From a virus, in UHGV virus genome UHGV-0090138: a stretch of DNA of 17,705 nt; one strand, given 5' to 3'. The translations under genes were made by a program, and so were the position numbers. Numbering within the stretch: position 1 is the first letter of the stretch; every line of letters begins with the position of its first letter. The notes beneath the pieces were generated by a model. The model had not been told where the DNA came from. It worked only from the letters and a program-made list of their open reading frames with translations, and did no database searches. Shown here piece after piece: positions 2,322-15,989 of this stretch.

Positions 2322-3404
2322 ATGAAAAAATTAACAGTGGCAATTTCTGCTGTAGCTGCATCAGTACTGATGGCGATGTCTGCTCAGGCAGCTGAAATTT
2401 ATAATAAAGACAGTAACAAGCTGGATCTGTACGGGAAAGTTAATGCTAAGCACTACTTCTCCTCTAATGATGCAGATGATGGTGATACTACTTATGCCCG
2501 TCTTGGCTTCAAAGGTGAAACCCAAATCAACGATCAACTGACTGGTTTCGGTCAGTGGGAATATGAATTCAAAGGCAACCGCGCTGAATCTCAAGGTTCC
2601 TCCAAAGACAAAACCCGTCTTGCATTTGCAGGCCTGAAATTCGGTGACTACGGCTCAATCGATTACGGCCGTAACTACGGTGTAGCATACGACATCGGTG
2701 CGTGGACTGACGTTCTGCCAGAATTCGGTGGCGATACCTGGACCCAAACAGATGTATTCATGACTGGTCGCACCACAGGTGTTGCAACTTATCGTAACAA
2801 CGACTTCTTTGGTCTGGTTGATGGCCTGAACTTTGCAGCTCAGTATCAGGGCAAAAATGACCGAAATGAAGTAACTGAAGCTAATGGCGATGGTTTCGGT
2901 TTCTCAACTACTTATGAGTATGAAGGATTCGGCGTGGGTGCAACCTATGCTAAATCTGATCGCACTAATAATCAGGTTATCTACGGTAACAACGGTCTGA
3001 ATGCTTCTGGTCAAAATGCTGAAGTATGGGCAGCTGGTCTGAAATATGATGCGAACAACATCTATCTGGCCACCACCTATTCTGAAACCCAGAACATGAC
3101 TGTTTTTGGTAATAACCATATTGCCAACAAAGCACAAAACTTCGAAGCTGTTGCACAATATCAGTTCGACTTCGGCCTGCGTCCATCCGTTGCTTACCTG
3201 CATTCTAAAGGAAAAGACTTGGGTGTTTGGGGTGATCAGGACCTGGTTGAATATGTTGATGTAGGTGCAACCTATTACTTCAACAAAAATATGTCCACTT
3301 TTGTTGACTACAAAATCAACCTGATTGATAAGAGCGATTTCACGAAAGCATCTGGCGTTGCTACCGATGATATCGTTGCTGTAGGTATGGTTTACCAGTT
3401 CTAA
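2322..3404 (+). CDS. OmpC/OmpF-family outer-membrane porin (prophage moron, NmpC/Lc-like), 360 aa with signal peptide
   Basis: Signal peptide [30 protein letters not shown], porin motifs ([13 protein letters not shown]..., C-terminal ...VAVGMVYQF); on the strand opposite Q and the lysis genes, as for nmpC in DLP12. Confidence 0.85.
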
Positions 3405-8893: not shown

Positions 8894-9004
8894 ATGCCCT
8901 CCATAGTAACCACAAATAAAAAATACAATATGTACTCATTAAACACAAGCAAAAAATACACATTGTGCATGGATGGTTCCAGTACAGAGCGTAATAATAA
9001 GGAC
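8894..9004. promoter_or_regulatory. OR operator / PR-PRM divergent promoter region
   Basis: 111-bp cro-cI spacer with three related ~15-bp operator-like sites (8923..8937, 8955..8969, 8981..8995) resembling AGTACATAT(C/T)GTA(C/T)T; the same motif recurs at OL. Confidence 0.6.
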
Positions 9005-9664
9005 ATGAAAATGAAATGGTATGAACTGGCTAGATCCAGAATGAAAGAGCTCGGCATAACTCAAGAGAAGTTAGCCGAAGAGCTAGGTATGACGCAGGGT
9101 GGAATTGGACACTGGTTGCGCGGATCTCGTCATCCATCTCTTAGTGATATTGGTGTGGTGTTTAAATACCTTGGTATTGATAACATATCATTCAACCACG
9201 ACGGGACATTTTCACCTGTTGGCGAATACTCATCGGCCCCAGTTAAAAAACAATATGAGTACCCTGTTTTTTCTCATGTTCAGGCTGGGATGTTCTCTCC
9301 AGAACTCAGAACCTTTACCAAAGGCGATGCGGAGAGATTGGTAAGCACAACCAAAAAAGCCAGTGACTCTGCATTCTGGCTTGAGGTTGAAGGTAACTCA
9401 ATGACCGCACCAACAGGTTCCAAACCTAGTTTTCCTGACGGGATGTTAATTCTGGTTGACCCAGAGCAAGCTGTTGAGCCCGGCGATTTCTGCATAGCCA
9501 GACTTGGTGGTGATGAGTTTACCTTCAAGAAACTGATCAGGGATAGCGGTCAGGTGTTTCTACAGCCACTAAACCCACAATACCCAATGATCCCATGCAA
9601 TGAGAGTTGTTCCGTTGTGGGGAAAGTTATCGCTAGTCAGTGGCCTGAAGAGACGTTTGGGTAG
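9005..9664 (+). CDS. cI: CI repressor (N-terminal HTH + C-terminal LexA-like S24 autopeptidase domain), ~219 aa
   Basis: [26 protein letters not shown]; C-terminal [10 protein letters not shown]... and ...FTFKKL (Ser/Lys dyad); the ORF-track start 8894 is rejected because it would leave no operator region; start at ATG 9005 or 9011. Confidence 0.88.
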
Positions 9665-12456: not shown

Positions 12457-12753
12457 ATGAACGCTTATTACATTCAGGATCGTCTTGAGGCTCAGAGCTG
12501 GGCGCGTCACTACCAGCAGATCGCCCGTGAAGAGAAAGAGGCAGAACTGGCAGACGACATGGAAAAAGGCCTGCCCCAGCACCTGTTTGAATCGCTATGC
12601 ATCGATCATTTGCAACGCCACGGGGCCAGCAAAAAAGCCATTACCCGTGCGTTTGATGACGATGTTGAGTTTCAGGAGCGCATAGCAGAACACATCCGGT
12701 ACATGGTTGAAACCATTGCTCACCACCAGGTTGATATTGATTCAGAGGTATAA
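12457..12753 (+). CDS. gam: Gam (RecBCD inhibitor), short GamS form, 98 aa
   Basis: [60 protein letters not shown]... matches lambda Gam. Confidence 0.95.
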
Positions 12754-12758
12754 AACGG

Positions 12759-13544
12759 ATGAGTACAGCACTCGCAACGCTGGCTGGGAAGCTGGCTGAA
12801 CGTGTCGGCATGGATTCTGTCGACCCACAGGAACTGATCACCACTCTTCGCCAGACGGCATTTAAAGGTGATGCCAGCGATGCGCAGTTCATCGCATTAC
12901 TGATCGTTGCCAACCAGTACGGCCTTAATCCGTGGACGAAAGAAATTTACGCCTTTCCTGATAAGCAGAATGGCATCGTTCCGGTGGTGAGCGTTGATGG
13001 CTGGTCCCGCATCATCAATGAAAACCAGCAGTTTGATGGCATGGACTTTGAGCAGGACAATGAATCCTGTACATGCCGGATTTACCGCAAGGACCGTAAT
13101 CATCCGATCTGCGTTACCGAGTGGATGGATGAATGCCGCCGCGAACCATTCAAAACCCGCGAAGGCAGAGAAATCACCGGACCGTGGCAGTCGCATCCCA
13201 AACGGATGTTACGGCATAAAGCCATGATTCAGTGTGCCCGTCTGGCCTTCGGATTTGCTGGTATCTATGACAAGGATGAAGCCGAGCGCATTGTCGAAAA
13301 TACTGCATACACTGCAGAACGTCAGCCGGAACGCGACATCACTCCGGTTAACGATGAAACCATGCAGGAGATTAACACTCTGCTGATCGCCCTGGATAAA
13401 ACATGGGATGACGACTTATTGCTGCTCTGTTCCCAGATATTTCGCCGCGACATTCGCGCATCGTCAGAACTGACACAGGCCGAAGCAGTGAAAGCTCTTG
13501 GATTCCTGAAACAGAAAGCCACTGAGCAGAAGGTGGCAGCATGA
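12759..13544 (+). CDS. bet: Bet (Red-beta single-strand annealing protein), 261 aa
   Basis: [66 protein letters not shown]... matches lambda Bet. Confidence 0.97.
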
Positions 13545-14221
13545 CACCGGACATTATCCTGCAGCGTACCGGGATCGACGTGAGAGCTGTCGAACAGGGG
13601 GATGATGCATGGCACAAATTACGGCTCGGCGTCATCACCACTTCAGAAGTTCACAACGTGATAGCAAAGCCCCGATCAGGAAAGAAGTGGCCTGACATGA
13701 AAATGTCCTACTTCCACACCCTGCTAGCTGAGGTTTGCACCGGTGTGGCTCCGGAAGTTAACGCTAAAGCGCTGGCCTGGGGAAAACAGTACGAGAACGA
13801 CGCCAGAACCCTGTTTGAGTTCACTTCCGGCGTAAATGTTATTGAATCCCCGATCATCTATCGCGACGAAAGTATGCGCACCGCCTGCTCTCCCGATGGT
13901 TTATGCAGTGACGGCAATGGCCTTGAGCTGAAATGCCCGTTTACCTCCCGGGATTTCATGAAATTCCGGCTCGGTGGTTTCGAGGCCATAAAGTCGGCTT
14001 ACATGGCCCAGGTGCAGTACAGCATGTGGGTGACGCGAAAAGATGCCTGGTACTTTGCCAACTATGACCCGCGTATGAAGCGTGAAGGCCTGCATTATGT
14101 CGTGATTGAGCGGAATGAAAAGTATATAGCGAGTTTTGACGAGATGGTGCCGGAGTTCATCGAAAAAATGGACGAGGCACTGGCTGAAATTGGTTTTGTA
14201 TTTGGGGAGCAATGGCGATGA
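13541..14221 (+). CDS. exo: Exo (lambda exonuclease, Red-alpha), 226 aa
   Basis: [65 protein letters not shown]... matches lambda Exo; ATGA overlap with the bet stop. Confidence 0.97.
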
Positions 14222-14400
14222 AACATCCTCACGATAATATCCGCGTAGGCACGATCACTTTCGTCTACTCCGTTACAAAGCGAGGCTGGGTATTTACCGG
14301 CCTTTCTGTTATCCGAAATCCCCTGAAAGCACAGCGGCTGGCTGAGGAGATAAATAATAAACGGGGAGCTGTATGCACAAAGCATCTCCCGTTGAGTTAA
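14218..14400 (+). CDS. Lambda orf60a-like protein, 60 aa
   Basis: [60 protein letters not shown]; ATG overlaps the exo stop (ATGA). Confidence 0.8.
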
Positions 14401-14564
14401 GAACGAGTATCGAGATGGCACATAGCCTCGCTCAAATTGGAGTCAGGTTTGTGCCAATACCAGTAGAAACAGACGAAGAATTTCATACGTTAGCCGCATC
14501 CCTTTCACAAAAGCTGGAAATGATGGTGGCGAAAGCAGAAGCAGATGAGAGAGACCAGGTATGA
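14373..14564 (+). CDS. Lambda orf63-like protein, 63 aa
   Basis: [63 protein letters not shown]. Confidence 0.8.
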   Translation: MHKASPVELRTSIEMAHSLAQIGVRFVPIPVETDEEFHTLAASLSQKLEMMVAKAEADERDQV

Positions 14565-14644
14565 CAACCACGGAATGCATTTTTCTGGCAGCGGGCTTCA
14601 TATTCTGTGTGCTTATGCTTGCCGACATGGGACTTGTTCAATGA
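14561..14644 (+). CDS. Tiny hydrophobic ORF, 27 aa, translationally coupled on both sides
   Basis: My translation MTTTECIFLAAGFIFCVLMLADMGLVQ; ATG overlaps the orf63 stop and its TGA overlaps the next ATG (two ATGA junctions). Confidence 0.35.
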   Translation: MTTTECIFLAAGFIFCVLMLADMGLVQ

Positions 14645-14856
14645 CACCTCAGCAGGAAAACGCCCTTCGCAGCATTGCCCGTCAGGCTAATTCTGAAATC
14701 AAAAAAGCCAGACAGCAGTTTCCGGATAAAAACGTCGATGACATTTGCCGTAGCGTACTGAAGAAGCACCGCGAAACGGTAACGCTGATGGGATTCACAC
14801 CGACTCATTTAAGCCTGGCAATCGGCATGTTAAACGGCGTCTTTAAGGAACGATGA
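14641..14856 (+). CDS. Lambda orf61-like protein, 71 aa
   Basis: MTPQQENALRSIARQANSEIKKARQQFPDKNVDDICRSVLKKHRETVTLMGFTPTHLSLAIGMLNGVFKER; start refined from the ORF-track start 14545 to the internal ATG. Confidence 0.7.
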   Translation: MTPQQENALRSIARQANSEIKKARQQFPDKNVDDICRSVLKKHRETVTLMGFTPTHLSLAIGMLNGVFKER

Positions 14857-14879
14857 ACATGAAAAGCAAAATCATCAGG

Positions 14880-14900
14880 GAGCTACAGGCTCCTTTTTTA
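14880..14900 (+). terminator. Weak candidate intrinsic terminator after orf61
   Basis: Short GC stem ggagc-tacag-gctcc followed by tttttt. Confidence 0.35.
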
Positions 14901-14954
14901 TTATTCGCATTCACCCTCAAGCGTATTAACCAACAATTCAGGGATTAATGGAAG

Positions 14955-15176
14955 ATGGCAGACATCATTGATTCAGCATCAGAAATTGAAGAATTACAGC
15001 GCAACACAGCAATAAAAATGCGCCGCCTGAACCACCAGGCTATATCTGCCACTCATTGTTGTGAGTGTGGCGATCCGATAGATGAACGAAGACGCCTGGT
15101 CGTTCAGGGTTGTCGGACTTGTGCAAGTTGCCAGGAGGATCTGGAGCTTATCAGTAAACAGAGAGGTTCGAAGTGA
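14955..15176 (+). CDS. TraR/DksA-family C4 zinc-finger protein (lambda orf73-like), 73 aa
   Basis: Cys-x2-Cys ... Cys-x2-Cys (CCECGDPIDERRRLVVQGCRTCASC), size and motif typical of phage TraR-like proteins. Confidence 0.8.
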   Translation: MADIIDSASEIEELQRNTAIKMRRLNHQAISATHCCECGDPIDERRRLVVQGCRTCASCQEDLELISKQRGSK

Positions 15177-15386
15177 GCGAAATTAACTAGAAGCCAAAGA
15201 TAAAATCATCGCTGAGCAGGAGAAAATCGCTAACGGAGAAAAGACAGTAAGTCAGTATATGAAAACCGCATGATATCATCAGATAAAAATCGGTCGTAAA
15301 GCGAAATATTAATACCAGAACAAACGAGTCGAGGTAAATTATATTACCTCGATAAATTAACTAAAACTTGCCCGCTATATACTATA

Positions 15387-15989
15387 TCATTCAGTATCAT
15401 CACGCGCGGTCTGTGCATATGTCACTACCGCACCTAATATATTAATTTTCTTTTCAACATAGATAATATTATCGTACTCATAATTGCCATACGGATAGCA
15501 AATGCGAATATTCTCATGTAGTTCGGGGTCATCCACCTCAGCTCCAGAACAACTTTTTGAACTACCGGAAGTATACCGATACGGTGCAACATAAGACGAT
15601 GTCTCTCCAGGCAAAAAATAAGTTAGTGTCGTAAGGGGTATAATCAGAAAAAATCCAGCAAATATGCACATCCCTGCATAAACCTTAAGGTATGCTGACA
15701 GACTCTTCCAGCCTCTTTGTTTTACTATCCCCTTCTTAACCCAAAACAGAGATAACAGAAAAGCTATTCCCATGCTAAACAGAATGTAATAGTGGGATAT
15801 ACTCTGATTAAGAAACGTGACCCTGTAGATATCTGCCCGCCACCAGAAGAAAAGGAAAATAAAGATCAGCCCTGAAACTGTCATGCAAATCAAATAAGGA
15901 TACGAATCTTTTTTCATGTTTAGCGCCCATAAAATTTTTCCTGACCCGGACAAATTTACCATCCATTTTTTGCGCAGAAAATAGCTCAT
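15387..15989 (-). CDS. Hypothetical integral membrane protein (3-4 predicted TM helices plus ~80-aa C-terminal soluble domain), up to 200 aa; AT-rich moron on the opposite strand
   Basis: ORF-track frame; hydrophobic segments LICMTVSGLIFIFLFFWW, YYILFSMGIAFLLSLFWV, VYAGMCIFAGFFLIIPLTTLTYF; AT-rich codon usage unlike flanking lambda-like genes; start ambiguous (Met 1, 10 or 25), no clear SD. Confidence 0.6.
   Translation of the reverse strand: MSYFLRKKWMVNLSGSGKILWALNMKKDSYPYLICMTVSGLIFIFLFFWWRADIYRVTFLNQSISHYYILFSMGIAFLLSLFWVKKGIVKQRGWKSLSAYLKVYAGMCIFAGFFLIIPLTTLTYFLPGETSSYVAPYRYTSGSSKSCSGAEVDDPELHENIRICYPYGNYEYDNIIYVEKKINILGAVVTYAQTARDDTE

Follow-up and report, generated by a model that had tools for sequence, protein, structure and literature searches.

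A candidate 27-codon gene for a small hydrophobic peptide, tied by ATGA overlaps to both of its neighbors, in the early-left operon of lambdoid phages

Introduction

The closest described counterparts of the locus considered here are genes of phage and bacterial operons that are coupled by an AUGA overlap. The short open reading frame (ORF) that is our subject, referred to below as the micro-ORF, likewise shares four bases with a same-strand neighbor, in this case at both ends; it lies in an early operon, the genes around it use the same ATGA overlap, and the gene downstream of it, orf61, likewise has a weak ribosome-binding site. As known here from sequence, it differs in being unusually short, and in being overlapped on both sides, so that it would form a link in a chain of genes.

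The E. coli small membrane proteins AcrZ, MgrB and YohP, all shorter than 50 residues, were found by ribosome profiling or conservation. The micro-ORF resembles this class in size, in encoding a single hydrophobic core of helix length, in its coding-type substitutions and in having been missed by gene callers through its shortness. Its product, MTTTECIFLAAGFIFCVLMLADMGLVQ, differs in resembling no family in Pfam, PHROGs, NCBIfam, PADLOC or the PDB, in being net acidic and in lacking basic residues beside its core, and the likeness is drawn from sequence alone. A second class of small hydrophobic products comprises the type I toxins Hok, Ldr, Ibs, ShoB and DinQ, of 19–50 residues. The peptide is similar to these in length and hydrophobic character, whereas the micro-ORF has no promoter of its own, no antisense RNA gene, no Rfam match and no sequence similarity to them, and sits inside a polycistronic operon.

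The same DNA has also been read as part of lambda orf61 and of the Stx phage Orf61 labelled ZapA, the 61-, 93- and 103-aa forms of which include 14545–14640. The micro-ORF lies in a different frame, and the variants at the locus follow the micro-ORF frame. Here we present evidence that, on the likeliest account, these 84 nt are a genuine coding gene of the pL operon of lambdoid phages. It is not a new kind of system; if real, it is an overlooked gene beside a mis-started neighbor, in the most studied phage and in the Stx phages.

Results

Setting and anatomy of the micro-ORF

The window, by which we mean the whole 17,705-nt stretch that was analyzed, is a lambdoid prophage oriented in the direction of the early-left (pL) operon. 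Its micro-ORF region is about 98% identical to lambda, which carries the identical ORF, and the surrounding 800 bases are 97.8–99% identical to lambda, ev243, HK630 and many Stx phages. Of the 5426 complete genomes of E. coli scanned, 3217 contain the segment. Pfam matches and the ORF listing identified Kil, Xis and Int in the window, together with the first six features below and the last.

8894–9664, CI-type repressor
12457–12753, Gam
12759–13544, Bet
13541–14221, Exo
14218, ATG of orf60a, overlapping exo
14373–14564, plus strand, orf63 (63 aa, DUF1382), the upstream gene, with a TGA stop at 14562–14564
14547–14553, plus strand, purine run GAGAGAG, a moderate Shine-Dalgarno-like site with 7-nt spacing to the ATG of the micro-ORF
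14561–14564, plus strand, ATGA overlap of the orf63 stop and the micro-ORF start
14561–14644, plus strand, micro-ORF, with an ATG start, 27 sense codons and a TGA stop at 14642–14644; predicted product MTTTECIFLAAGFIFCVLMLADMGLVQ
14641–14644, plus strand, ATGA overlap of the micro-ORF stop and the orf61 ATG (71-aa reading)
14641–14856, plus strand, orf61 read as 71 aa (MTPQQENALRS...), the downstream gene
14853–14948, plus strand, short ORF after orf61, of 31 aa from ATG 14853 or 29 aa from ATG 14859
14877–14903, plus strand, intrinsic-terminator-like hairpin followed by a T run, inside the 31-aa ORF and downstream of orf61
14955–15176, orf73, a TraR/DksA zinc-finger protein

The gene order in the pL operon of the window is kil-gam-bet-exo-orf60a-orf63-[micro-ORF]-orf61-orf73. 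Further ATGA overlaps join bet to exo, exo to orf60a (at the 14218 ATG) and orf61 to the 31-aa ORF, whose ATG overlaps the orf61 stop so that the chain of overlaps continues downstream, and the micro-ORF thus fits a series of coupled genes. By a rough, post-hoc estimate, an ORF joined through ATGA to the genes on either side of a gap like this one has a prior of about 0.0015. The original prediction, made by inspection of the window, had the ATG of the micro-ORF overlapping the orf63 stop, which is what we find at 14561–14564. It also described the ORF as lying between orf63 and orf61 with its TGA over the orf61 ATG; the overlap is present at 14641–14644, but "between" holds only for the 71-aa start of orf61, since the lambda (14545) and Stx (14575) annotations of that gene cover the micro-ORF in another frame.

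Annotation of the micro-ORF and of orf61

The start of orf61 has been annotated in at least three ways, at positions equivalent to 14545, 14575 and 14641. In the lambda reference it is the ATG equivalent to 14545, giving a 20-nt overlap with orf63, and in Stx2 II and 2G7a it is 14575, giving a 93-aa product labelled ZapA. That label reflects a Pfam match that scores 16 bits, short of the curated cut-off of 23.8. The 71-aa start at 14641 is used by ev243, phage 21, PhiR30_1 and the five RefSeq E. coli loci that we opened, and these records leave a 76-nt unannotated gap after orf63. Lambda carries a run of seven A residues where the window and ev243 have six (about 14701–14706 in the window), a difference that shifts the frame of lambda orf61 and yields its 61-aa product; lambda Orf61 has been described as looking truncated (PMC8614690).

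The micro-ORF had been put forward as unannotated. This stands for lambda, for every phage feature table opened and for the five RefSeq E. coli loci, all of which omit it, but not for sequence databases as a whole: the exact 27-aa peptide is entered as a "hypothetical protein" in UniRef (A0A0A2SGE8_ECOLX) and in some E. coli submissions to GenBank, and the collection has it on 981 contigs. A full-text literature search for the peptide sequence gave no match, and we found no mention of the 27-codon ORF in the exo-xis literature. According to a 2021 review (PMC8614690), ribosome profiling of lambda bore out the exo-xis ORFs already annotated and revealed two further peptides, one of 7 and one of 31 aa. 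No 27-aa ORF stands among the extra ORFs that the review cites for the region, and we count this against reading the micro-ORF as a translated gene. Lambda footprints over the micro-ORF would probably have been credited to the overlying annotated orf61.

Integrity across related loci

To follow the ORF through its relatives, we assembled an integrity set from two non-overlapping scans, comprising 119 IMG/VR and 106 metagenome loci (225 in all). The 27-codon ORF is intact in 201 of these loci; in 4 a Q27-to-stop change leaves 26 codons, 19 are SfI-type loci without the segment, and 1 has an indel. The ORF and its ATGA start are therefore intact in 201 of 205 segment-carrying loci, the other four losing the last codon only. 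The single indel among the 206 segment-carrying scan loci is a one-base deletion in a contig of 1.3x coverage. The start ATGA is present in every one of the 201 intact loci, and exactly the peptide of the window is encoded by 179 of them. At 14641 the overlap is ATGA in 164 of 201 loci and GTGA in the remaining 37. Conservation of the ORF and of its coupling overlap in lambda and its relatives, proposed as a check on the original prediction, is thus what these loci display.

Variants and the frame under selection

Intactness in a closely related family can partly reflect shared ancestry, and the family at hand is narrow. A scan of 185,579 species genomes with an Orf61 protein pattern yielded nothing beyond copies of the E. 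coli type and contaminating lambda DNA, and a search of 5.8 billion proteins returned only copies of roughly 70% identity or more. Three apparent distant matches were rejected: two at 51–52% came from frameshift-ridden assemblies (L235, L236), and the third was an IS-disrupted copy (L237). Because there are no distant relatives and all homologues share at least about 91% DNA identity, we turned to variants within the family. The variant set comprised approximately 330 loci with a conserved orf61 anchor, drawn from IMG/VR, the metagenome scan, GTDB genomes, GenBank phages and RefSeq E. coli, and each distinct combination of site and allele was counted once. The results, with variants at codon positions 1, 2 and 3 given in that order, were as follows.

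14564–14640, micro-ORF frame: 25 variants (7, 4, 14); 13 synonymous, 6.96 expected; pN/pS 0.28
14564–14640, orf61 frame: 25 variants (14, 7, 4); 4 synonymous, 6.36 expected; pN/pS 1.53
14578–14640, orf61 frame (93-aa extension alone): 19 variants; 3 synonymous; pN/pS 1.72
orf61 core, own frame: 54 variants (8, 16, 30); 25 synonymous, 15.9 expected; pN/pS 0.33
orf63, own frame: 45 variants (13, 15, 17); 14 synonymous, 11.8 expected; pN/pS 0.60

The excess of synonymous changes in the micro-ORF frame is significant by permutation (p = 0.009), as is the placement of 14 of 25 variants at codon position 3 (binomial p = 0.016). When only variants seen in at least two loci are considered, 12 of 19 fall at the third position of the micro-ORF frame (p = 0.007), and among those seen in at least ten loci, 7 of 8 are synonymous in the micro-ORF frame and none of the 8 in the orf61 frame. 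No signal emerged from the polymorphism tests in either of the remaining sense frames over the micro-ORF. The commonest variant, 14572 G>T, creates a TGA stop in the orf61 frame. The phase of the substitutions switches at the micro-ORF stop, beyond which 14655 G>A, present in 96 loci, is synonymous in orf61. Purifying selection acts on the micro-ORF frame, to an extent (pN/pS 0.28) comparable with that on the neighboring orf61 core (0.33). The signal comes from 25 variants, at p of about 0.01, rather than from deep conservation. Absence of a synonymous-site pattern across homologues had been named as the outcome that would speak against the ORF; the pattern is present.

Mosaic junctions

Recombination junctions in lambdoid phages usually fall at gene borders, and we examined where they fall at this locus. 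In PhiR30_1 and at least 40 other loci, a Dam-type methyltransferase replaces orf63 and homology to the window starts exactly at 14561. The stop codon of the methyltransferase gene overlaps the micro-ORF ATG, again as ATGA, and this time behind GGGAGG. In SfI-type phages the order is an unrelated gene, GAGG and then an ATG, with Orf61 beginning at the 14641-equivalent Met and no micro-ORF. The junctions sit at exactly 14561 and about 14641, so that the micro-ORF behaves as a mosaic module of its own, bounded by a junction on each side, and it travels with orf61 and not with orf63.

A counter-example was found outside the two integrity scans. Escherichia sp. E1V33 (L093) carries yet another upstream gene, together with a 14-nt deletion that removes the micro-ORF start. 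An ATGA-coupled ATG behind GGAGG reads into the orf61 frame, and the micro-ORF frame has no ATG. Relative to the window, the retained bases show two changes that are synonymous in the micro-ORF frame and one A-to-V change, all of them non-synonymous in the orf61 frame. The same arrangement was sought in 5426 E. coli genomes and 50,697 phage records and occurred in none. We read this locus as a lineage-specific loss or fusion. The deletion, and the fact that SfI-type phages manage without the ORF, are both counted against the micro-ORF as a gene.

Properties of the predicted peptide

The peptide MTTTECIFLAAGFIFCVLMLADMGLVQ has an uninterrupted hydrophobic run of 15 residues, C6–A20, which extends to 21 (C6–V26) if D21 is tolerated. 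Its best 19-residue Kyte-Doolittle mean is 2.33, which ranks first among the 115 ATG-initiated ORFs of 20–60 aa in the six frames of the window. The non-synonymous variants (T3A, T3I, E5K, C6S, F8L, A11G, G12D, I14K, F15L, C16Y, A20S, D21N, D21G and V26I) are all rare, and most preserve the hydrophobic character. For the peptide, no usable family, defense-system or solved-structure match came from Pfam, PHROGs, NCBIfam, PADLOC or the PDB.

The peptide contains no Lys or Arg and has two acidic residues, E5 and D21, which make it net acidic. It therefore lacks the basic residues that flank the helix of a single-pass membrane protein by the positive-inside criterion, and the positive-inside rule gives no orientation for it. 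The shortness of the hydrophobic run, at just 15 residues, and the lack of basic residues are two observations that we count against the peptide-gene reading.

Translation signals and probable coupling

The strength of Shine-Dalgarno sites was estimated as the duplex energy with the 3′ end of 16S rRNA, in kcal/mol.

Micro-ORF start in the orf63 context: −5.6 (GAGAGAG, 7-nt spacing)
Micro-ORF start in the methyltransferase context: −10.3 (GGGAGG)
14575, the 93-aa start: −3.8 (badly placed)
14641, the orf61 start: −3.9 (weak)
SfI orf61 start: −5.6 (GAGG)

Taken with the substitution pattern, the integrity of the ORF in 201 of 205 loci and its modularity, which support the genuine small hydrophobic peptide gene originally proposed, these signals suggest how the locus might work. 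We think it probable that the 27 codons of the micro-ORF form a gene that is translated, is coupled to both neighbors and specifies a small hydrophobic peptide, and that this gene also supplies ribosomes to an Orf61 of 71 aa. Ribosomes ending orf63 at UGA 14562–14564 would restart at the overlapping AUG 14561, helped by the upstream purine run; in some phages the restarting ribosomes would come off the Dam-type methyltransferase that replaces orf63. The resulting 27-residue peptide, with its hydrophobic core of 15–21 residues, would probably reside in the inner membrane or be bound to a hydrophobic partner. Ribosomes would then stop at UGA 14642–14644, over the orf61 AUG (or GUG), and be handed to orf61, a handover that fits the weak ribosome-binding site of that gene. 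Translation, termination–reinitiation, membrane location and an effect on the host are all things that we infer.

A rival reading is a pure relay. The ORF might be translated only to carry ribosomes from orf63 to orf61 by two termination–reinitiation steps, its peptide being functionless. Such a relay would have ATGA at both ends, as the micro-ORF does, and it agrees with the weak orf61 site, with the GTG start of orf61 in 37 loci, with the better orf61 site of SfI-type phages, which lack the micro-ORF, and with a peptide that matches no family, structure or defense system. Yet it would leave the amino-acid sequence unconstrained, whereas pN/pS is 0.28 and 179 of the 201 intact loci encode an identical peptide, and a direct orf63/orf61 overlap would relay ribosomes without the 78 extra bases. 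We regard a pure relay as unlikely.

The alternative of an N-terminal extension of Orf61

The same bases could instead encode the N-terminus of Orf61, which would then start at ATG 14575 (93 aa) or ATG 14545 (103 aa), and the 27-codon frame would be accidental. Annotation speaks for this: the extension frame is open, and has been annotated as such, in lambda, Stx2 II and 2G7a, and PHROG 303 and PHROG 26061 are built on orf61 forms of the 93/103-aa type. The variants speak against it, with pN/pS of 1.53 in the extension frame (1.72 for the 93-aa extension alone) and 14 of 25 variants at its first codon position. Nor is the longer form maintained: reading from ATG 14545 in the orf61 frame is possible in just 38 of the 201 loci, and in the other 163 that ATG is lost or followed by TGA at 14572. 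ATG 14575, in contrast, is present in 201 of 201 loci, but it would be retained in any case because codons E5–C6 of the micro-ORF frame fix those bases, and it is without a usable Shine-Dalgarno site.

Other loci bear on the same question. The E1V33 locus, where the coupled ATG behind a strong GGAGG enters the extension frame, is the one arrangement of the kind that favors an extended Orf61, and its absence from the 5426 E. coli genomes and 50,697 phage records counts on the other side. The Orf61 of the 19 SfI-type loci has no extension and starts at the 14641-equivalent Met, the five RefSeq E. coli loci use the 71-aa start, and residues 1–23 of the published 93-aa Phi24B Orf61 model are not placed consistently (PMC8614690). 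We judge that 14545–14640 is not coding in the orf61 frame, and consider an Orf61 extension to be quite improbable as an account of this DNA.

Possible non-coding and antisense features

We looked for features other than a sense-strand gene. Within 14000–15300 there is no Rfam family match, and no promoter or terminator was found inside the micro-ORF, nor any promoter-like site adjoining it. The RNA of the micro-ORF folds less stably than shuffled sequence (z = +1.85). On these grounds, and with a fold that is not unusual, we rejected an RNA element.

On the other strand, an antisense ORF of 61 codons (14443–14628) shares its third codon positions with the micro-ORF frame. Of 21 variants, 8 are synonymous in the antisense ORF versus 11 in the micro-ORF frame; that the antisense ORF fits only somewhat worse is counted against the coupled peptide gene. 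In 11 loci the change 14626 C>T destroys its start codon. A search of the antisense strand over 14200–15200 for promoters gave one site only (14900–14929), which matches chance expectation, and to our knowledge no transcription is known on that strand there. With its worse fit and the loss of its start in some loci, we rejected the antisense ORF as a gene and regard it as a shadow of the sense frame.

A non-coding spacer or an other-strand feature such as this ORF, with the frame, overlaps and hydrophobicity coincidental in a young segment, could draw on the narrow and recent family (at least about 91% identity), which makes intactness partly a matter of shared ancestry, on the shared third positions and the 8 of 21 synonymous variants of the antisense ORF, and on statistics (p about 0.01) that are not overwhelming, but we hold it very improbable given the third-position and synonymous excess in the sense frame, the one indel among 206 segment loci, in a 1.3x-coverage contig (the E1V33 locus lying outside the scans), the antisense start lost in 11 loci with no promoter beyond chance, the mosaic junctions at exactly 14561 and about 14641, the lack of an Rfam match and a fold weaker than that of shuffled sequence.

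Discussion

If the coupled peptide gene is real, lambda, the reference temperate phage, would gain one early gene, at complement 30925..31008 of J02459 (coordinates from the match plus the stop codon). Orf61 would be a protein of 71 aa starting at 14641, and its 61-, 93- and 103-aa annotations would have a spurious N-terminus. Structural models built on the 93-aa form (PMC8614690) would then include about 22 residues foreign to the protein.

The correction would also reach the genetics of the exo-xis block, which is carried by Shiga-toxin phages and E. coli prophages. Published orf61 deletion mutants replaced the orf61 nucleotide sequence as annotated, and their phenotypes include changes in the frequency of lysogeny, the timing of induction and the adsorption of Phi24B (PMC6213356). 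Although their precise end points are not stated, these deletions probably took out the micro-ORF as well, wholly or for the most part, in which case the phenotypes could not be assigned to Orf61 alone. As the annotated gene that was replaced contains the micro-ORF, and as lambda orf61 is itself frameshifted, we raise as a tentative possibility that the peptide is an unrecognized functional early effector of lambda and Stx phages, behind part of the orf61 or exo-xis phenotypes.

The approach may be of use elsewhere, since the phase of variants together with the positions of mosaic junctions can validate an ORF too short for gene callers in a family that has barely diverged.

The short ORF on the other side of orf61 has been noticed before. 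Its 29-aa form is annotated in phage 21, in SfI and in one lambda record, and the ORF at 14853–14948 appears to be the 31-aa ORF that PMC8614690 cites from lambda ribosome profiling. A terminator has been predicted between orf61 and orf73 (PMC4195576), and the terminator-like hairpin and T run that we found at 14877–14903 lie inside this ORF.

The orf61 frame in lambda and in public assemblies

In the window, positions 14701-14706 within orf61 hold a run of six adenines (A6), which is also found in ev243, and the corresponding run in lambda has seven (A7; NC_001416, about 30865-30871). As a result of the extra A, orf61 is out of frame in the lambda reference, and the 61-aa product annotated there consists of approximately 32 out-of-frame residues, approximately 22 real Orf61 residues and a frameshifted tail. 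The A7 allele is that of the laboratory strain, and it recurs in a set of genome contig matches (L094-L107) that consist of lambda DNA. The assemblies in question are labelled as Shewanella, Bradyrhizobium, Pseudomonas, Paenibacillus, Kitasatospora, Oceanobacillus and others, and several of the matched contigs are about 48.4-48.5 kb long. The set has the appearance of lambda contamination or spike-in within public genomes.

When Orf61 from the window (14641-14853) was compared with Pfam ZapA, it scored 16 bits, which is below the curated cut-off of 23.8 bits, and an NCBIfam search returned no match. Many records name Orf61 'cell division protein ZapA', a designation whose basis is this sub-cut-off Pfam match.

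Alternative modules upstream of orf61

Two alternative modules, a methyltransferase type and an SfI type, lie upstream of orf61 in related loci. In the first, represented by PhiR30_1 (locus L086, 347-904) and at least 40 further loci, a Dam-type N6-adenine methyltransferase gene occupies the place of orf63, and the 27-codon micro-ORF that precedes orf61 is retained. In SfI (locus L087, 123-875), neither orf63 nor the micro-ORF is present, and their place is taken by a gene whose annotation reads queuine tRNA-ribosyltransferase. A further arrangement was found in Escherichia sp. E1V33 (L093; NZ_RHJI01000010.1), with a variant site approximately 100 nt upstream of the conserved orf61 stretch used to collect these loci. 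Here a different upstream gene is accompanied by a 14-nt deletion that removes the micro-ORF start and joins an ATGA-coupled ATG, preceded by GGAGG, to the orf61 frame. The arrangement, a unique variant, occurred in 0 of 5426 E. coli genomes and 0 of 50,697 phage records.

The NMR structure of the orf63 product has been solved, according to the literature. Variants in orf63 (14373-14560) number 13, 15 and 17 at the three successive codon positions, with a pN/pS of 0.60, a coding-type pattern weaker than that of the micro-ORF. Part of this weakness may stem from the 28-nt overlap with orf60a or from incompletely masked mosaic segments.

Other ORFs in the window

Immediately downstream, a short ORF overlaps the orf61 stop codon by ATGA and contains a terminator-like element:

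14853-14948, + strand: 31-codon ORF (29 codons from its second ATG)
14877-14903, inside that ORF: intrinsic-terminator-like hairpin followed by a T run

This is probably the 31-aa ORF that lambda ribosome profiling is reported to have added; records of phage 21, SfI and one lambda entry give it as 29 aa.

One ORF and one gene lie further away:

15387-15989, - strand: 200-codon ORF with several hydrophobic segments, between orf73 and xis
2322-3404: Gram-negative porin gene, 360 aa

The 200-codon ORF had no match in Pfam or PADLOC. It sits in a low-GC island (36-40%, versus about 47-53% in the surroundings), in an interval that holds ea22 and ea8.5 in lambda, and looks like an acquired gene in the opposite orientation. 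The porin gene, within the prophage window, matches Pfam Porin_1 with an E value of 4e-152.
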